From positions 1 through 64,000 of the IMG/VR virus record IMGVR_UViG_3300026432_000013: a DNA stretch of 64,000 bases; one strand, written 5' to 3'. A program made the position numbers and the translations under genes. The notes under the pieces are model-generated. The model made no database searches. It saw only the letters and a list, made by a program, of their open reading frames with translations, and was not told the origin of the DNA. The DNA comes from a virus. Its lineage: Duplodnaviria; Caudoviricetes. Below, piece by piece: positions 53,328 through 60,868 of this stretch; position 1 is the stretch's first letter; every line of letters begins with the position of its first letter.

Positions 53328-53556
53328 TTCTACACCTCCAAAATAACTTGTCTAAATAAATTATCATGAAGGAGACTATGGTATAATACACAGTAAAAGA
53401 GAGACACAAGGTAGCCACAGAACTAGGGAATCAGCTATAAGGTCATGAACGAGGTAGGCTACATTTCCTTACACTATTCACTATGCCAGTCTGTAGTGCG
53501 TTGCTCTCTCTTCCTTTTTCTTTTTTCCCTCCCCTCCGTGGGGATTCCTTGATGCC

Positions 53557-53658
53557 TTACCCAAATACTTCCACTGCCGCTTTTATGAAATAGAGTACTA
53601 TAAGCCCTCTTATTGAAAAGTCAAAGATGCGTTCACCTAGTGCTTTCTTCTCTTCCAT
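53557..53658 (-). CDS. 33-aa membrane peptide (not in ORF track)
   Basis: MEEKKALGERIFDFSIRGLIVLYFIKAAVEVFG; SD AGGGGGTG. Confidence 0.5.
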   Translation of the reverse strand: MEEKKALGERIFDFSIRGLIVLYFIKAAVEVFG

Positions 53659-53964
53659 TGATAGCCACCCCCTGAACTTAGATTTCCCCAACCCATCACA
53701 GGAATATTCTTCCGTATTAACAGGAAGCAATGGCATTGGACTCGTCCCTAGTAATGTGACAAGCTAGACCAACGTAAAGTTAAAGCAAACCCGAAACGAC
53801 CCCCCGAAACGAGTCACCGTCACTTTTGAGTAACGGGGGGTGCATGCTAGTACACTCTTTGATTCTCTAGGTGTCCCAATCCCCACCAAAAGCGAAACAT
53901 TTTTTCTTACTCTGGGGTGTCTCCGCACTGGGTTGCGAAAATCATGAGTATGGAGGAGATTAGA

Positions 53965-54441
53965 ATGACGCAACTTGTAGTTAAATGTAACCACAATCAG
54001 GTGAGCAAACCTAAGAAGTCTGAAGTAATTAAGTGGGATTTCATAGAACCTCAGTATGAAAATAGATCACGACATACTGGAGAACTAGAGCAGGGTAGAA
54101 AGTCACTGGTTAGATGGTTCGGTGAGATGATATTACCTACAGCAATCGTTACACGCCTAGGAATGAGAGCTACACATGCATTTGCAGCTACTCAGAATGC
54201 CAACGACCTACGCAGAGGATTCATGGATATAGTTGACATATTCACTGCAATAGCAGAGCCAATACTTTGGTTCTACGCTCTGATAGGGTTTATCATGATG
54301 GCAACAGGTAAGAGTAAGGATGCTGGATGGAACAGAATTAAGAACGTAGGATATGCTTACATTGGAATCTCAATGTTACCTACTATGTTCCAGATGCTAC
54401 GTTGGATTTCCAATATCATCAGATCATCTATATCTTTCTAG
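53965..54441 (+). CDS. Membrane protein with VirB2/TrbC pilin-like two-helix C-terminus
   Basis: Start reassigned after SD GGAGGAG; EPILWFYALIGFIMM-G-K..GWNRIKNVGYAYIGISMLP. Confidence 0.55.
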   Translation: MTQLVVKCNHNQVSKPKKSEVIKWDFIEPQYENRSRHTGELEQGRKSLVRWFGEMILPTAIVTRLGMRATHAFAATQNANDLRRGFMDIVDIFTAIAEPILWFYALIGFIMMATGKSKDAGWNRIKNVGYAYIGISMLPTMFQMLRWISNIIRSSISF

Positions 54442-54453
54442 GAGGAATCAGAT

Positions 54454-55491
54454 ATGAGTAGAGCAATTACATCTGTAGACTTGGGGTTCATGTACACAAA
54501 TGCTATCATCAATGGTAAGCCAGCTGTAATCAAGTCGGTTGTAGGTGTTGGAAGAGATAGAAAGCTAAAGGAATTCAATAAGAGTGTAGCAGACTCCTTT
54601 GAAGTAGACCAAAAGCACGATGACATTGAGTATAGAAATGCAGACGGCACACACTTTGTATCAGACTTGGCAATATCTCAATCTAGAATCGTTAAACACT
54701 CCCTAACTGGTGACCGCTTTGATAGTGAGGTTACAAAAATACTACTAGGAACTGTTCTCGGTCTAGGTATGGGTGGTGGGTCGGTGGAAACTAACTTTGT
54801 ATCAGGGTTACCAGTTAGTCACTTTGACCAGTATAAGGAAGCTATTAAGAGCCTGTTTATGGATAACAAGCATGAGTACCATCTAGAGTCTTCAGGTATC
54901 AAAATCAATGGCTCAGTTAAGGGTAAGAAAGGATTATTCGTACCACAACCGTTTGGGGCTTTAATGGACAGAATACTGGATGATAAAGGTGAGATATCAG
55001 ACACTAACTTAGCTAAGTCGAGGGTAGCAGTAGTTGATATAGGGTTTGGAACTACAGACATCTACGTGTGTGAGGTCTTCAATAACATTGAGCATCTGAC
55101 TACTAGCTTCAGCGTTGCTATGAACTCTGTAAACCAAGTCGTCTCAGATAATATATTAGACCACACAGGAGTAAACTTCCCACTGTATAAGGCTGAACAT
55201 GTAGTTCAAAGCAGAGTACTGAAGTCTGGAACTAAGATATACGACATGGCTCCAACTATTGATTGGGCATGTGAGAACGTAGCTTATGACATCACTAATA
55301 GACTGCATAACTTTTGGAAGGATGAAATAAACTTCCTAGACAAGATAATATTTGCTGGTGGTGGAGGGGTTTCACTGTACCCTCATATGAAAGACCACTT
55401 CCCAAACCCAGAACTAGCTAAGAGCGGTCAGTTTGCAGTAGCTAAAGGGTATCACAAGTGGGGTGTGAGAAATCTGATTAGGGGTGTATGA
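54454..55491 (+). CDS. parM: ParM/StbA-family actin-like ATPase
   Basis: VDLGF..T phosphate 1, PQPFGA, VVDIGFGTTD phosphate 2, FAGGGG, QFAVAKGY. Confidence 0.88.
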   Translation: MSRAITSVDLGFMYTNAIINGKPAVIKSVVGVGRDRKLKEFNKSVADSFEVDQKHDDIEYRNADGTHFVSDLAISQSRIVKHSLTGDRFDSEVTKILLGTVLGLGMGGGSVETNFVSGLPVSHFDQYKEAIKSLFMDNKHEYHLESSGIKINGSVKGKKGLFVPQPFGALMDRILDDKGEISDTNLAKSRVAVVDIGFGTTDIYVCEVFNNIEHLTTSFSVAMNSVNQVVSDNILDHTGVNFPLYKAEHVVQSRVLKSGTKIYDMAPTIDWACENVAYDITNRLHNFWKDEINFLDKIIFAGGGGVSLYPHMKDHFPNPELAKSGQFAVAKGYHKWGVRNLIRGV

Positions 55492-55873
55492 TATGGCTGA
55501 TAAACAGTATACATTCAGAACAACTAAGTCTACAGAGTGGCTGGAAGACCATCTAAATGATATGAAGGATAGAAGCGGTTTTATCAGGGAGTGTGTATTA
55601 TTTGCAGTAGAGCATGACCCAAAGCTGGCACAGAGGTTATATGATAACATCACCTCAGAGATAATGTCACAGACTCCTATCAAATCACATCAGAGACCAG
55701 AAAACCCTAGCAAACCCAAGAAAAAAGTATCACATCAGAAGCCTCAGCTCCCAGTGTCAGATAAGAAGCCTGCACCTCAGATAAAAGAATCCAAGCCAAA
55801 GATACTTGTACAGCAGGACAAAGAGATAGACCTAGACAAGGCTTTGAGTGCAAATACTAAACAATTTCAATAG
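55484..55873 (+). CDS. ParR-like ribbon-helix-helix adaptor
   Basis: YTFRT..EWL...L....RSGFIRECV; flexible tail; coupled to parM. Confidence 0.65.
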   Translation: MYDMADKQYTFRTTKSTEWLEDHLNDMKDRSGFIRECVLFAVEHDPKLAQRLYDNITSEIMSQTPIKSHQRPENPSKPKKKVSHQKPQLPVSDKKPAPQIKESKPKILVQQDKEIDLDKALSANTKQFQ

Positions 55874-55884
55874 GAGGGATTTAC

Positions 55885-56019
55885 ATGGAGAAGAAACCAG
55901 TAAGCAATAAAGTGCTATACGTTGTGGGTGCAGGATTAGTTACAGCAGGTATGGTAACTATCAAGGTGTTGACATGGTCAGTTAACAAGGCAGTAGAAGT
56001 ACTCTTGGAGGTACAATAA
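55885..56019 (+). CDS. 44-aa membrane peptide (not in ORF track)
   Basis: SD AGGAGGG; TM VLYVVGAGLVTAGMVTI. Confidence 0.7.
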   Translation: MEKKPVSNKVLYVVGAGLVTAGMVTIKVLTWSVNKAVEVLLEVQ

Positions 56020-56020
56020 C

Positions 56021-56164
56021 ATGTTCTGGGTTAGGTTGGTTGGAAGTATATGTAAGTCGCTCTTGATAATGGGAGCTATTGAATATATAGCTCCTGGATT
56101 CTCATATCAAGTGGCTTACAAAACTGTAAAGGTGATAATGGGTATGTGGATGGGAGGACACTAA
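56021..56164 (+). CDS. 47-aa hydrophobic peptide (not in ORF track)
   Basis: SD GGAGG; abuts neighbours. Confidence 0.65.
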   Translation: MFWVRLVGSICKSLLIMGAIEYIAPGFSYQVAYKTVKVIMGMWMGGH

Positions 56165-56165
56165 T

Positions 56166-56366
56166 ATGAATGTACGCAAGATGGCATACTCTTGTATCTA
56201 TGTAGTTATCTCGTTAGCTGTACCAGAGTTATCTGGAAATGGTCTCAAGTTCATCGGTGGTATAATGGGTGGGATATTTGATGCAACGTTTGAATCTATC
56301 GGTGAGAAGGCTAGGGAAGAAATGATGTATGTGTTACCAGAATTTATGCAAGGATGGTTTAAATAG
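56166..56366 (+). CDS. 66-aa membrane peptide
   Basis: SD GGAGG; hydrophobic N-half. Confidence 0.7.
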   Translation: MNVRKMAYSCIYVVISLAVPELSGNGLKFIGGIMGGIFDATFESIGEKAREEMMYVLPEFMQGWFK

Positions 56367-56377
56367 GAGGGGTTAAG

Positions 56378-59119
56378 ATGAATGCACAACCAGAGGTTAA
56401 TATTGTTAATCCAACTACTAAGGAGAAGATACGTTTAGTAGAGAAAGAGGAAATACAGTATGTGACACTGGAGGTTATTCCTAGTAAGATGACGTCTAAT
56501 GCAGGAGTTAGGTGGCTTATAACAGAGTTTGCAACACTGTTCACTCCACTAAACAGACGTATCAACTTTGCAGGTGGTAGACTGGTCTACACTCCAGAGA
56601 TGAATATATGGTGGGAAGTAATAATACACAAAGGTCAGGTGAAGTTCTATCTGGTTATACCTGATAAAGACCACTTAAAGGATGCACTTACTAGGCAGAT
56701 AAGAAGATGCTGGAAACGTTCTACAGTAAGGGAGGTGAAAGACCCTCTGCCTAATCTTCATATGGACAATACTAGTGTCACCAAGATGTCCTTACAGAAT
56801 CATCCAGCGCTATCCTTGGATGTAGAGAACCCTAAGTATACTCCATTGGACTCTATCTTGACGACTACTAACTATCTCAAGGATGAGGATTATGCGATAC
56901 TCCAACTAGGGATGAGACCATTAGGGGAGTCTTGGAATGAGACTATGGTTGGAATCAGCGAAGATATCAAGGAAAAGAACACCATTCCTAAGAAAAAAGG
57001 TACGATGTTTACATCAAAAAACGTCTTGGTGGGCTTGGCTAACGTTGTGGGTCTTGTTCTTGAAGAACTTATGAACATAGTAGGTGATTTCCTCATACCT
57101 GGCTGGGAGATGAATAGTGAGTTCAGAGACTCACTAAAGAGAAAGGCACATGAGGGACGTTCTAAATCATCATTACGTAAGAAGTATAGTGAAGGATTCA
57201 AGATTAACTTTAATGCAGTAGCTGTATCCGAGGATGAAGATAGACGTAGAGCTATCACAAGAAGCCTTACAGCAGGTTTCCACCCTCTAGAAGGGGATAA
57301 TAAGATAGTGACGAAAGAAGTAGAGGGTAGAGACAAGGTGAAAGCCCTCAAGAATATTAGAGACCGTAAGATGGTTGTTAAGATGAATGGAGATGAGCTA
57401 TGCTCCCTAGAATTAGCTAAGATAATACAGGTACCAGACCAAGTGTTACAGTTAGAACACCAAGGAGAGTTAGACACTGTTCAACATAGAAGTTTAGCAG
57501 ATATACCTAAGGAGATATTTGAAGATGACGGTAAGGGTATACCGTTTGCGACATATGAAGACACAGATGGTGAAACTAAGACAGTATACTTCGCAGGAGA
57601 CAACCCTAACCTACTGTGTATGTCACGTGTGGTAATAGGAGAGCCAGGTAGTGGTAAGTCCACATTTGCAGCTAGCTTTGCACTAGATGCACTGGAGAAA
57701 GGTTATGGGTCTATGGTAGTAGATGCAGCAGATGGTAAATTGGCACAGAGGATACTGAATCTAGTTCCACCAGATAAGAGGGATAAGGTAAAGATAATAG
57801 ACTTGCTAAATTCAGAGAACCCTGTAGGGTTGGGCTGGAATGAAATATTCAGAGGTAGAAATACTGACGTTATTGAGGATTTAATTACTGAAGAGATTCT
57901 GTCATACGTTGAGCTTGTAGCAGGTACAGAACTAAGCATGACATCTAGAATCTGGGTTGAGAATGCTGTACGTGCAGTGTACACTACTCCAGATGCAACG
58001 TTACAGGATATAGAGAATATGTTGAGTAATGCAGAATATCGTGCTAGTGTTATTCCTCATATTGATGACCCAGAGTTGCGTAGTGACTGGGAATACTTCC
58101 ATGAGAAGATGTCTAAAGAGGACAGAAAAGCTATATATGAGCAAGCATTCAGACGTCTAGCAGTTGTAATGCGTAAGAAGGCTCTAAAGAGTTTCATACT
58201 TCAGAAGCCTAAAAAGGATGAGAATGGTGAATATCTAGTAGACTTCAGAAAGTGGATGGATGAAGGCTGTCTAGTATTAGTCAAGGCTAATGAAACACTA
58301 GGTGAAGAGAATCAGACCGCACTAGTATCATTCCTAATATCTAAGTTTAATTTGGCTATCATTAGTAGGGAAGATATTGAGGAGGAGGATGACCGTAAGC
58401 CATGCTTCATAGTACTAGATGAACCAGACCACTATATCAAAGGTAGTGAACGCTGGAGAAGTATGTTAACTCGTTATAGAAAGTATCGTTGTGGCTTAAC
58501 ATTTATGTTCCATGGATGGGAGCAGTTAAAAAAGGCGGATAGAGAGTTACCTAAGATGATACGTAAGGCTGGTCCACACTATGTTATATTCCAAACAGAT
58601 AGAGATAACTTGAAAGAACTGGAGTCTGTTATTCAACCAGAATTTAGCGTAGACCAAATATCAAAGGGTATGCCTAAGCACCATGCAATCGTCAAGCTAA
58701 AGATGTACAATAAGAAGGGTGAAGCTACTCCACCATTTATGGTTAAGGCTATTAACGAGCCTGAAAAGAGATACAAGAAATATGACAATAATGACTTATA
58801 CGATATAAATGCAAGGCTTATGGGAAGACCAAAACAGGAAGTGCTGAATGAGTTGTTCAGATACAAGAACAATGCCGAGTTCTCTGTCGAACTAGTAGAT
58901 GGAGAGGACAAAAAAGGCAAAACCCCACCAAAAAACACCCCTATTGAAATTGATGAAGATGAGCGTAGAGAACAACATGAAGAGGAACTGCGTACACTAG
59001 AGAAAGATGCTGGTGCACTAGTAACTAAGCTATTAGAGGATGGTGATGAGGAAGGTGCAGAGGAAATAATGGAATTACTAGAGGAAGTATTATCAGATGA
59101 TGGATTGGAGGAAGGTTGA
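56378..59119 (+). CDS. VirD4/VirB4/HerA-like (type IV coupling) ATPase
   Basis: Walker A GEPGSGKS, VVDAADG, Walker B FIVLDE, RKYR..L..MFH. Confidence 0.85.
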   Translation: MNAQPEVNIVNPTTKEKIRLVEKEEIQYVTLEVIPSKMTSNAGVRWLITEFATLFTPLNRRINFAGGRLVYTPEMNIWWEVIIHKGQVKFYLVIPDKDHLKDALTRQIRRCWKRSTVREVKDPLPNLHMDNTSVTKMSLQNHPALSLDVENPKYTPLDSILTTTNYLKDEDYAILQLGMRPLGESWNETMVGISEDIKEKNTIPKKKGTMFTSKNVLVGLANVVGLVLEELMNIVGDFLIPGWEMNSEFRDSLKRKAHEGRSKSSLRKKYSEGFKINFNAVAVSEDEDRRRAITRSLTAGFHPLEGDNKIVTKEVEGRDKVKALKNIRDRKMVVKMNGDELCSLELAKIIQVPDQVLQLEHQGELDTVQHRSLADIPKEIFEDDGKGIPFATYEDTDGETKTVYFAGDNPNLLCMSRVVIGEPGSGKSTFAASFALDALEKGYGSMVVDAADGKLAQRILNLVPPDKRDKVKIIDLLNSENPVGLGWNEIFRGRNTDVIEDLITEEILSYVELVAGTELSMTSRIWVENAVRAVYTTPDATLQDIENMLSNAEYRASVIPHIDDPELRSDWEYFHEKMSKEDRKAIYEQAFRRLAVVMRKKALKSFILQKPKKDENGEYLVDFRKWMDEGCLVLVKANETLGEENQTALVSFLISKFNLAIISREDIEEEDDRKPCFIVLDEPDHYIKGSERWRSMLTRYRKYRCGLTFMFHGWEQLKKADRELPKMIRKAGPHYVIFQTDRDNLKELESVIQPEFSVDQISKGMPKHHAIVKLKMYNKKGEATPPFMVKAINEPEKRYKKYDNNDLYDINARLMGRPKQEVLNELFRYKNNAEFSVELVDGEDKKGKTPPKNTPIEIDEDERREQHEEELRTLEKDAGALVTKLLEDGDEEGAEEIMELLEEVLSDDGLEEG

Positions 59120-59945
59120 TATGAAGGGTATCTATAAACGTCCAGAGGTGAAGCAGATAACTAGAGAGTGGGTTTATAATAACTGCAACAACATTACAGA
59201 GAGGGACATGGGGTTGCTAAGGTTACTGGCTGATAAGAGGGTGCTAAAGAGAGACCAGATACAACGTCTTTACCCAGAATTTGCTAGTACTGAGAGGCTT
59301 AACAATAGGCTGAAGATACTGTTCAACAAGCATGTGATAGATAGAATAGTTCCCCCTGTACCTTTGGGTCAGGGGAGTGCTCAACAGCACATATGTATTG
59401 ACAGGGCAGGAATAATATTACTGGATATGGAACGATACAGTAAGCCAATCAAGTATGACTCTAATGGTCAGCGAATACTAGTAGACGGGTTTCACCACAG
59501 AGTTGCCATTAACGAATGTGAATGCTTGATAAGGGAAATTCTTAGAGACCTAGAGGGAGAGATGATATATTATGAGACGGAAGAGAAGTGCCACTTTAAT
59601 GACAGTTTCATTAAGCCCGACATTGTTTGTGTATTTAAGTGTAAGGGTAAAGGATATGGATTCTGCATTGAGGTCGACATGGGTACGGAGAGGCTACCAG
59701 TTATCAAGAACAAGATTGACAATTACAAAGATTACTACGTGTCCAAACAGTGGGCTAAGAAAGAATGGGCTAAAGTATTCAAAAATCCTACGTTTCCACG
59801 TGTTCTATTGTTAACAAGGGATAAGTTCACTAAAAGGGTTAATGACATGAGACACTATACCCACGGCTCGATGGTTAGATTCTTGAGTGGCACACAGGAG
59901 GACTTCACAAGCATACTAAATTCAATATTAAAAGGTAGCCTGTAA
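59097..59945 (+). CDS. Replication-relaxation (Replic_Relax) family protein
   Basis: TERD..LL..L wHTH, HH, KPD, IEVDMGTE, KI..Y PD-(D/E)xK core. Confidence 0.85.
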   Translation: MMDWRKVDMKGIYKRPEVKQITREWVYNNCNNITERDMGLLRLLADKRVLKRDQIQRLYPEFASTERLNNRLKILFNKHVIDRIVPPVPLGQGSAQQHICIDRAGIILLDMERYSKPIKYDSNGQRILVDGFHHRVAINECECLIREILRDLEGEMIYYETEEKCHFNDSFIKPDIVCVFKCKGKGYGFCIEVDMGTERLPVIKNKIDNYKDYYVSKQWAKKEWAKVFKNPTFPRVLLLTRDKFTKRVNDMRHYTHGSMVRFLSGTQEDFTSILNSILKGSL

Positions 59946-59959
59946 TGGGCTACCTTTTT
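59930..59959. terminator. Bidirectional terminator at gene convergence
   Basis: AAAAGGTAGCC-N6-GGCTACCTTTTT. Confidence 0.8.
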
Positions 59960-59960
59960 G

Positions 59961-60809
59961 TTATGCATATAGTAGTCTCCCACATTTTCCACAAGTAGTT
60001 GGCTCTTGATTATCATAAGATATACCAAATGGTGGTTCTTCTGTGTGATACTCGGTAACGTTATGGTCTGGAAGGTCTATGATATTTACTCGTCTTCCCT
60101 TAACAAACGTATCCAACTTGGACAGTATCTCTGCTTTACATCTAGGCTGATAGATTTCATGTTCGTCCAGTAAGTAGTACTTCTGGATATGCTCCATGAA
60201 CTTAGGGTTAATCATCTGCCATCGGTCTACCATTGCCTCTAGGAATTCAATAGTGAATGCTGGGAAGTCTACTGTAATAGAGGATACCAGATTCTTATTC
60301 ATTTCCACTAGTTGTAATAAGTCTAATGGCTTCATTATGTGAGGGAAGTAGTCTACGTGACACGACACGAAAACCTTCCACGCTTTTGCTATGAACATCA
60401 TCTCCCTGATGTCTTTCATCTCGGAGGACTCCACCTGTACCAACTTCCGTGCAGAGTCATCTAGGGAATTAATAACAACCCTCAAAGTTGAGCGGTTCTG
60501 TTCGCCCATCTTCTTAACAAGGTAGGTAGGTATCGCCTTCCCTGTCTTTAGAATCACTGGTGTATTGTTATCAAGCACTAAGTTAATCTTCTCTTCCCAG
60601 TTCGTCACTAGGTGAGTAAAGTATATAGGGTTAGGTAGATCCAACAGTAAGTAGTCTTTAAGGTCACCTAGAGACATTCTATCTCCGCACACCGCATATG
60701 CGTGGTCATTGTGCTTAATGATTTTTTGATTATAGCAGTTACAAAAAGATACAGATATAGGACTTCTATTTACGGAGATAGGAGTCCTGATTATTTCATT
60801 GTTATTCAT
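59961..60809 (-). CDS. Hypothetical protein, possible degenerate SplB-like radical SAM barrel
   Basis: FCNCY, ILKT, INSLDD..RKL pattern; no complete CxxxCxxC. Confidence 0.4.
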   Translation of the reverse strand: MNNNEIIRTPISVNRSPISVSFCNCYNQKIIKHNDHAYAVCGDRMSLGDLKDYLLLDLPNPIYFTHLVTNWEEKINLVLDNNTPVILKTGKAIPTYLVKKMGEQNRSTLRVVINSLDDSARKLVQVESSEMKDIREMMFIAKAWKVFVSCHVDYFPHIMKPLDLLQLVEMNKNLVSSITVDFPAFTIEFLEAMVDRWQMINPKFMEHIQKYYLLDEHEIYQPRCKAEILSKLDTFVKGRRVNIIDLPDHNVTEYHTEEPPFGISYDNQEPTTCGKCGRLLYA

Positions 60810-60868
60810 ATGTCTTACCTCCTGAAACTTAATGAAAGGGTGTACCCTGCTTGGCACACCCTTTTATA

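Follow-up and report, generated by a model that had tools for sequence, protein, structure and literature searches.

Gene sets that combine a relaxase-family nuclease, a large ATPase and an actin-like protein have been described in Bacillus phages before. For phage 0305phi8-36, Pathria et al. 2012 grouped genes for a relaxase, an ATPase, a VirB6-like and an actin-like protein into a "DNA translocation operon" (orf200-207) and noted its counterpart in SPO1 (PMC3357382). Deletion of this operon affected neither plaque size nor yield, and the phage Replic_Relax family was tied to CloDF13 MobC by HHpred (PMC3357382). In SPP1, gp32 was found to be early and non-essential by Godinho et al. 2018, who proposed a translocon formed with gp31.1/31.2 (PMC6316719). 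Here we analyse an operon of eight genes (g1-g8) at positions 53965-59945 of a 64,000 nt stretch of the phage record IMGVR_UViG_3300026432_000013. This stretch is referred to as the window; the source genome examined is a single 76-kb contig. The operon is a known, uncharacterised module. An initial annotation, made from the letters of the window, had stated that Bacillus phages contain similar gene sets of no demonstrated function, and both publications agree with this (PMC3357382, PMC6316719).

Our analysis suggests, with a probability of roughly 0.55, that the operon is the copy of this accessory DNA translocation operon in the CP-51 group of phages, i.e. a DNA-handling machine derived from a type IV secretion system (T4SS), positioned by ParMR and serving persistence or spread. 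Its core comprises the VirB2-like pilin g1, the small proteins g4-g6, the ATPase g7 and the nuclease g8 and is derived from a conjugative T4SS. The genes g2 and g3 are inserted into this core as an optional cassette.

The operons of 0305phi8-36 and SPO1 share with the window the same relaxase-family nuclease, a large ATPase and an actin-like protein, and they are accessory as well. Pathria et al. 2012 read the ATPase as TraG/VirD4-type and the actin homologue as a membrane anchor, whereas we find a predicted VirB4-type N-terminal domain in the ATPase. Compared with 0305phi8-36, g1 is VirB2-like here, ParM comes with an adaptor candidate of its own, and no VirB6-like gene was seen in this phage. 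In SPP1 (31.1, 31.2, 32), gp32 is homologous to g7 over its full length (family profile 2e-167), and small membrane proteins are encoded before it. However, no ParM, ParR-like or Replic_Relax gene adjoins gp32, and the small proteins are undetected by the g1 profile.

Operon layout and conservation

Over the operon stretch the window shows 96.9%, 96.2% and 90.7% identity to the Bacillus phages Shanette, JL and CP-51, respectively (Herelleviridae, Siminovitchvirus). By this comparison the window represents a CP-51/JL/Shanette-type phage. The operon corresponds to SPO1 genes 29.1 and 27.9-27.3. All eight genes are found in SPO1 in the same order and at the same site (gp29.1, 27.9, 27.8, 27.7, 27.6, 27.5, 27.4 and 27.3).

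The eight open reading frames (ORFs) are located on the + strand and separated by gaps of -23 to +12 nt (Table 1). A GGAGG-type ribosome site precedes seven of the eight. Both flanks are coded on the - strand, and positive GC skew is confined to 54-60 kb. The ORF map and the GC skew thus bear out eight tightly coupled genes running opposite to their neighbours, as initially described. In comparison to CP-51 and S4-1 the ratio dN/dS amounts to 0.00-0.30 in all eight genes, including the ORFs of 44, 47 and 66 codons. Hence all eight are real and maintained genes.

Conservation was further evaluated in seven metagenomic or genomic SPO1-like loci (L009, L020-L025) whose ORFs were scored with profiles. 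The order pilin - small peptide(s) - ATPase - Replic_Relax is found in all seven, and the core does not vary across nine lineages. Three of the loci (L009, L021 and L022) lack ParM and g3, while in L024 both are located downstream of the relaxase gene. Being absent or relocated as a pair, they form a movable accessory cassette. The initial annotation had described the island as a combination of a partition motor with a DNA-export module. Both parts are indeed present; the partition pair is however optional and movable and not an integral component.

The ATPase g7 is predicted to be VirB4-like

The product of g7 consists of a VirB4-type N-terminal domain (residues ~23-373) and a P-loop domain (~376-810), followed by an acidic tail at the C-terminus. 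Both Walker motifs are intact (A, GEPGSGKST; B, FIVLDEPD). The full-length AF2 model reaches a pLDDT of 83.5. Its C-terminal domain resembles VirB4 (4ag5) with Z 26.6 and a root mean square deviation (rmsd) of 3.4 A over 345 residues, and TrwB/VirD4 with Z 25.4 and an rmsd of 4.3 A over 368 residues. DndH (Z 25.2) and HerA (Z 23.1) follow. As the matches to VirB4, TrwB and DndH are nearly equal, this domain does not discriminate between the classes.

Hence we folded residues 1-375 alone (pLDDT 83.7) and searched the model against 48,161 PDB representatives with no Foldseek pre-filter. The best match was TrwK/VirB4 (7o42_A) with Z 15.3 and an rmsd of 3.6 A over 245 residues, whereby positions 23-373 of the model align to 34-433 of the chain. 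The runners-up reached Z 9.0 and 7.0. When Foldseek was used with the same region, the first 13 places were all taken by TrwK (E ~1e-5).

No segment of g7 exceeds the hydrophobicity threshold for a transmembrane anchor; the best 19-residue mean is 1.54 and lies in a conserved acidic helical hairpin. The VirB4-type N-terminal domain and the lack of an anchor argue against g7 as a VirD4-type coupling protein. The coupling ATPase of the initial annotation was therefore abandoned, and the set is to be read as VirB2/small peptides/VirB4 plus a MOB_C-type nuclease instead of a pair of type IV coupling protein (T4CP) and relaxase.

The VirB4 Pfam models CagE_TrbE_VirB, AAA_10 and TraC match neither g7 of the window nor any of 34 relatives. 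NCBIfam TraC is hit at 0.057, in the P-loop only. Among distant relatives two match TrwB_AAD_bind (3.2e-9) and one matches T4SS-DNA_transf (5.6e-7), whereas g7 of the window matches neither of them. According to the models, g7 is built like VirB4 and would work like it, yet it is a family of its own by sequence.

Two further elements of g7 are worth mentioning. At residues 205-262 (56990-57160) the VirB4-like N-terminal domain contains an inserted helical hairpin, which is conserved (GLVxEE..GDFxIPGWE). It is moderately hydrophobic, is modelled with low confidence and may represent a membrane- or partner-binding element. Residues 847-913 (58916-59119) form a long, very acidic helical tail whose coding region overlaps the start of the nuclease gene. 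By analogy to the tails of coupling proteins which bind relaxosome parts, one may speculate that its binding partner is the nuclease or the basic linker of g3.

A pilin-like protein and small membrane proteins precede the ATPase

The product of the first gene g1 starts with a long leader that closes on an A-x-A site of the signal-peptidase type, after which come two hydrophobic helices with a short basic loop between them. An exhaustive search yielded 34 representatives of the g1 family, 32 of which were aligned, and this layout of site, helices and loop is conserved among the aligned relatives. On its own g1 matches PF18895 (T4SS_pilin) at 1.2e-3 with 19.3 bits, which is under the cut-off of 26.6. 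Within the family, PF18895 is matched by 15 of the 32 members (best 3.7e-6) and TrbC/VirB2 by 3 of the 32. Moreover the family profile finds, at 5.4e-19, the gene annotated as TrbC/VirB2 on plasmid pCLK, and this gene precedes a homologue of g7. For g1 itself dN/dS is 0.08-0.20. Judged from these profile matches g1 is probably a member of the VirB2/T4SS-pilin family, and the pilin-like first gene of the initial annotation stands.

Three membrane peptides had been proposed between the partition genes and the ATPase gene. This applies to g4 and g5 with one clear hydrophobic helix each, while g6 is only weakly hydrophobic. Homologues of g4 are gp27.7 of SPO1 and genes in L020-L025, and in CP-51 the protein is identical although dS is 0.53. 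The homologue of g5 is gp27.6 of SPO1 (dN/dS 0.03-0.30). For g6 a dN/dS of 0.02-0.06 was obtained. Word-based searches for homologues of g3 and g6 gave almost nothing; homologues of both were taken from genes adjoining relatives of g7 instead. The position of g6 next to the ATPase gene is filled by a gene of 60-85 aa in SPO1, L009 and L020-L025. By position only, g6 is a candidate for a VirB3-like partner.

The order pilin - small membrane protein(s) - ATPase is shared with the VirB2-VirB3-VirB4 core of R388 (TrwL/TrwM/TrwK; 7o42, 8rtd). The likeness extends to the two-domain fold of the ATPase and to the pilin family, and homologues on clostridial plasmids are typed MPF_T. On the other hand sequence identity is ~9%, the host is a virulent phage, and no VirB6, VirB8, VirB10, VirB11 or VirD4 was seen. 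The initial annotation had already listed the rest of a T4SS and any integrase as lacking. In agreement with this, neither a hydrophobicity scan of the 76-kb contig nor the annotation of relatives, together not an exhaustive search, revealed an integrase or another T4SS component.

Minimal systems are also known from archaea. The archaeal Ced system imports DNA by CedA, the small pilin-like CedA1/A2 and a VirB4/HerA-like ATPase, with no relaxase. It resembles the operon by combining small membrane or pilin-like proteins with one ATPase of the VirB4 class in the absence of a full T4SS. However, demonstrated homology is confined to the class of the ATPase, and NCBIfam CedD is matched at 0.04 in the P-loop only.

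A relaxase-family nuclease closes the operon

The last gene g8 has its probable start at 59121. It matches PF13814 at 1.5e-18 with 68.0 bits (cut-off 25.3), covering positions 1-183 of the 191 of the profile. An N-terminal helix-turn-helix region is followed by a C-terminal PD-(D/E)XK-like domain. The residues E..PD..ExDxGxE..K are invariant in five diverse homologues (SPO1, Tsamsa-like, metagenomic). Together, the profile match over the cut-off and the invariant PD-(D/E)XK-type residues confirm the relaxase-like nuclease that had been proposed.

The MOB_C relaxases CloDF13 MobC and pAD1 TraX belong to Replic_Relax, and g8 shares the family match and the PD-(D/E)XK-like signature with them. 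In contrast to these relaxases, g8 comes with no known oriT and lacks the usual T4CP partner.

ParM and its adaptor candidate form the movable cassette

The identification of g2 as ParM holds. Both Pfam domains are found over their cut-offs (ALP_N 7.2e-18, 65.7 bits; MreB-like_C 3.8e-18, 66.7 bits), and NCBIfam ParM is matched at 9.8e-25. The closest solved relative is ParM of the C. botulinum plasmid pCBH (2.5e-24, residues 4-337). Moreover g2 carries the nucleotide-binding motifs DLGFMYT and VVDIGFGTTD.

The assignment of g3 is less direct. Its N-terminus shows a conserved strand-helix-helix (KQYTFxTT..TEWL..RSxFIRE) similar to a ribbon-helix-helix (RHH) fold. A variable basic linker forms the middle, and the C-terminus carries a conserved acidic DLDxAL motif. 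Profile searches of Pfam, NCBIfam and PDB for g3 as a ParR gave noise only. Weak leads point to StbB/ParR (atlas 0.82; Plasmid_stab_B 0.035 for the homologue in L024). The best evidence available for an adaptor of ParM is the co-movement of both genes, as g3 always accompanies ParM and relocates with it.

In comparison to ParMRC (R1; pCBH ParM, 6ixw/6izr), the operon shares ParM together with an overlapping small gene, the strand-helix-helix N-terminus and a conserved C-terminal tail. It differs by the missing match to a ParR family, by two 13-bp copies in place of many iterons, and by the location of the pair in a transfer-type operon.

Within g3, direct repeats are located at 55649-55771 (three copies of ATCACATCAGA and two copies of a 19-mer). 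They encode repeated SHQ(K/R)P peptides of the basic linker, and nothing points to a role at the DNA level. Another repeat region lies in front of the relocated ParM and its partner in L024 (5254-5367). This 114-bp AT-rich stretch with repeats of the TTAAAAA/TTTTTAA type is a possible centromere or operator of the relocated cassette.

A 13-bp tandem upstream of the pilin gene

A short direct repeat, CCCGAAACGA, had been noticed upstream of the operon as a possible ParR or nick site. It is located at 53790 and 53803 exactly as claimed and occurs nowhere else in the window. It is part of a two-copy tandem with a period of 13 bp, which is kept in JL and S4-1 and shows one change in CP-51.

We surveyed the 300 bp upstream of the pilin gene for tandems in the nine lineages against shuffles. 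In six of the nine the best period-13 tandem is found 160-185 bp from the start of the pilin gene. P versus shuffles is 0.0005 for the window, 0.002 for L020, <0.0005 for L024, and 0.02 for L023 as well as L025. Period 13 is also the best of all periods from 9 to 17 in these five. The sequences of the tandems differ between lineages and suggest TCA-N4-GACCC(C). All five lineages with a significant tandem carry ParM and g3, while it is found in none of the three without them (Fisher p ~0.05, n=9). The tandem of SPO1 is intermediate and weaker.

Taken alone, CCCGAAACGA is weak evidence. By the survey, the tandem is a conserved architectural feature which is strongest in operons with ParM. Since it tracks ParM and g3, an operator or centromere for an RHH protein is favoured over a nick site. 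The tandem hence remains a candidate for an operator/centromere or a relaxase site, whereby two copies are few for a parC.

Table 1. Features of the operon and its borders in the window.
Feature	Size	Position	Strand	Assignment based on
Two-copy tandem, period 13 (CCCGAAACGACCC / CCCGAAACGAGTC)		53790..53815		175 bp upstream of g1
g1, VirB2/TrbC-type T4SS pilin-like protein	158 aa	53965..54441	+	PF18895, family profile
g2, ParM-type actin-like protein	345 aa	54454..55491	+	Pfam, NCBIfam, PDB profiles; phrog_691 partition protein
g3, ParR-like adaptor candidate	126-129 aa	55484..55873	+	alignment; company with ParM
g4, single-pass membrane peptide	44 aa	55885..56019	+	one hydrophobic helix; phrog_15178
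g5, single-pass membrane peptide	47 aa	56021..56164	+	one hydrophobic helix; phrog_23813
g6, small protein	66 aa	56166..56366	+	directly upstream of ATPase gene; phrog_15417
g7, VirB4-like ATPase	913 aa	56378..59119	+	Pfam PF26449 DUF8128; structure models
g8, Replic_Relax / MOB_C-type relaxase-family nuclease	274-282 aa	59097..59945	+	PF13814, phrog_9381
Bidirectional intrinsic terminator		59930..59958		shared with convergent - strand gene

Distribution of the module

Full-length distant homologues of g7 are found in phage G, SP-10, TP-84, D6E, 0305phi8-36 and PBC1-like phages. Others are located on plasmids of C. botulinum and the B. cereus group, and the clostridial plasmids keep a pilin-like gene beside the ATPase gene. 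In Tsamsa-like phages, ParM, an M23 hydrolase, Replic_Relax and a Xer recombinase are encoded near the homologue of g7. An example is phage vB_BanS_Nate (L006:3937-4659), where the module contains an M23 peptidase (3.2e-19) followed by a Xer-type recombinase. M23 wall hydrolases are a usual part of Gram-positive T4SS. The Tsamsa-like module thus comes closer to a complete Gram-positive transfer set.

Two relatives show other genes next to the module. In L021 (7225-8628) it is followed by a gene of the DndB family. In the phage contig L009 (320-4745; run ERR3200804), homologues of prkA, yhbH (DUF444) and spoVR, all genes linked to sporulation, directly adjoin the pilin-ATPase-relaxase module. 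This contig also encodes DNA polymerase A and a ligase.

Proposed function and alternative explanations

A mechanism can be proposed as follows. The pilin-like g1 and the peptides would form a membrane platform to which a hexameric VirB4-like motor docks. The nuclease g8 would bind and cut a specific DNA site, and g7 would drive that DNA, or a complex of nuclease and DNA, across the membrane. Filaments of ParM, tied via g3 to the short repeat, would push the phage genome to the pole or to a membrane site. Such a machine would most likely be used for persistence or spread when lytic growth is blocked, with entry of the genome into the forespore as the leading candidate. Delivery to the pole would on its own make capture in the forespore more likely.

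The initial annotation had proposed forespore entrapment, cell-to-cell spread or a carrier state as possible uses, and these gain some circumstantial support here. A role of the operon in spore entrapment is plausible, since DNA of both CP-51 and SPO1 is trapped in spores. CP-51 infects sporulating cells; its DNA stays enclosed until the spores germinate and remains viable in them for 305 days or more (reviewed in PMC4113786). Virospores are also formed by SPO1, whose ParM (27.9) has been named as a potential contributor (PMC12991052). ParM/ParR of R1 are reported to enhance conjugative transfer (PMC4949242).

The distribution of g7 gives circumstantial support for a link to sporulation. Phage records with a homologue come from endospore-forming genera in 144 of 145 cases, and most of the plasmid matches do likewise. 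We also used a sample of 401 Bacilli genomes with Spo0A_C as a proxy for sporulation capacity. All 19 strong matches to g7 (E <= 1e-40) are Spo0A-positive, compared with 335 of the 401 genomes (84%) overall. Thirteen of these matches span both domains and six cover mainly the ATPase part.

Several points weigh against a DNA translocation machine with a link to sporulation. The Spo0A test is weak (uncorrected p ~0.03) and low in power because 84% of the sample is Spo0A-positive, and the spore link is confounded by phylogeny. DNA transfer, nicking, a filament or a membrane complex has been demonstrated for no member of the family. SPP1 and many plasmids keep only the membrane proteins and the ATPase, without the nuclease. 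Hence the core activity may not be a relaxase-dependent DNA transfer. The phage DNA contains hydroxymethyluracil and has fixed ends, and a fit to single-strand transfer after nicking is not evident. In the region 53400-60200, no oriT-like inverted repeat was found apart from the terminator. The same region holds no centromere or iteron array, the two-copy 13-bp tandem being the only such element. Finally, neither a wall hydrolase nor any component resembling VirB6, VirB8 or VirD4 was seen in this phage, so a complete channel across the Gram-positive wall is not evident.

A bolder version of the proposal, which we regard as rather unlikely, sees the operon as a dedicated virospore machine restricted to elements from endospore formers. 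ParM would deliver the genome to the pole, and a minimal VirB2/VirB4 plus MOB_C set would transfer it across the sporulation septum or into a neighbour cell, needing neither a virion nor a full secretion system. DUF8128 would unite the roles of VirB4 and of the coupling protein.

The genome might also be maintained as a plasmid-like episome in an arrested infection, i.e. in a carrier state, in pseudolysogeny or in spores after germination. ParM and g3 would then segregate it, g8 would act as a nicking replication initiator, and the ATPase and the membrane proteins would provide an anchor. The names of the g8 families are in line with this, the PHROG label being 'replication initiation by nicking' and the Pfam name replication-relaxation. 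ParM/ParR are bona fide parts of plasmid segregation, CP-51 DNA persists in spores, and homologues on phage-plasmids of the B. cereus group adjoin ParM and replicases. Yet several operons that are otherwise intact do without ParM and g3, which excludes segregation as the core function. Moreover the VirB2/VirB4 pair has no known role in replication, and the replication genes of SPO1 are known and located elsewhere. An episome maintenance system is thus an unlikely explanation.

Quite improbable is an organisation of lytic replication or recombination at the membrane, in which the filament and the membrane proteins would place the DNA and the ATPase would resolve or move concatemers. Host MreB and the membrane protein p16.7 of phi29 provide a model, and the replication of phi29, SPP1 and PRD1 depends on the MreB cytoskeleton. 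The operon is located among genes of replication and nucleotide metabolism, and the homologue in SPP1 is early and expressed together with the membrane proteins. However, deletions in 0305phi8-36 and SPP1 cause no growth defect, and homology to a pilin and VirB4 indicates transport instead.

Pairs of an ATPase and a nuclease are typical of defence systems. Accordingly, a HerA/VirB4-class ATPase with a PD-(D/E)XK nuclease might exclude rival phages or plasmids or attack conjugative elements of the host. The ATPase domain of g7 indeed resembles the defence ATPases HerA, DndH and Tdp (Z 19-25) and matches PADLOC mad8 at 2.2e-11, and DndB is located next to the module of one relative. All these matches are however limited to the generic P-loop domain, and no other gene of the operon matched PADLOC. 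The VirB4-type N-terminal domain, the pilin and ParMR are foreign to known defence systems, while the nuclease family is that of the MOB_C relaxases. We consider a conflict system very improbable.

A selfish remnant of a mobilisable plasmid riding in the phage genome without benefit would account for the plasmid-type gene content, the inverted orientation and the dispensability in the laboratory, but is hardly credible. SPO1 and the CP-51 group keep the operon in a shared location at a protein identity of 58%, and strong purifying selection acts on all eight genes, none of which is decayed.

Returning to a T4SS-derived machine for persistence or spread, it has been asked since the 1960s how virulent Bacillus phages bring their DNA into spores, as both CP-51 and SPO1 do. 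To our knowledge the only case worked out is phi29, which borrows Spo0J/parS of the host. The operon is an obvious phage-encoded candidate and easily deleted in SPO1. Should it indeed transport DNA, no smaller T4SS-derived DNA translocon would be known from bacteria, and it would be an example of a virus that spreads or persists without particles. If not, it is a widespread accessory module (SPO1-, SPP1- and Tsamsa-like phages, phage G, phage-plasmids and clostridial plasmids) with DUF8128 needing a function.

Transcription signals and flanking genes

A bidirectional terminator had been proposed at the end of the operon, and folding on both strands corroborates it. A 12-bp stem (59930-59941 / 59947-59958) has an A run on one side and a T run on the other. 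Energies are -17.1 kcal/mol on the + strand and -15.9 kcal/mol on the - strand, with z-scores of -4.1 and -5.0, respectively. The stop codon of g8 lies within the loop. This stem was overlooked by a simple terminator scanner and found by folding.

Promoters are less clear. A scan of the operon for sigma-70 promoters returned no more sites than shuffles did, and no convincing match to the consensus of SPO1 middle or late promoters was seen for the operon. A sigma-G-like CATGCTA box was considered as a promoter element and discarded, as it is not conserved in SPO1. In the divergent intergenic region, the blocks TAGTAATGTGACAAGCTAG (53752-53770) and TGCTAGTAC (53841-53851) are kept between the CP-51 group and SPO1 while the remainder diverged. 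By this conservation, both blocks are probably promoter or operator elements.

Two genes beyond the operon were inspected as well. A polytopic protein of 250 aa, encoded at 63976-64728 (- strand) and thus partly past the end of the window, was considered as a VirB6. It belongs to the TerC family instead (3e-52, JL orthologue) and is the only polytopic membrane protein in the contig. The convergent gene at 59961-60857 (- strand) is the counterpart of SPO1 gp27.1 and shows no Pfam match at E <= 0.1.

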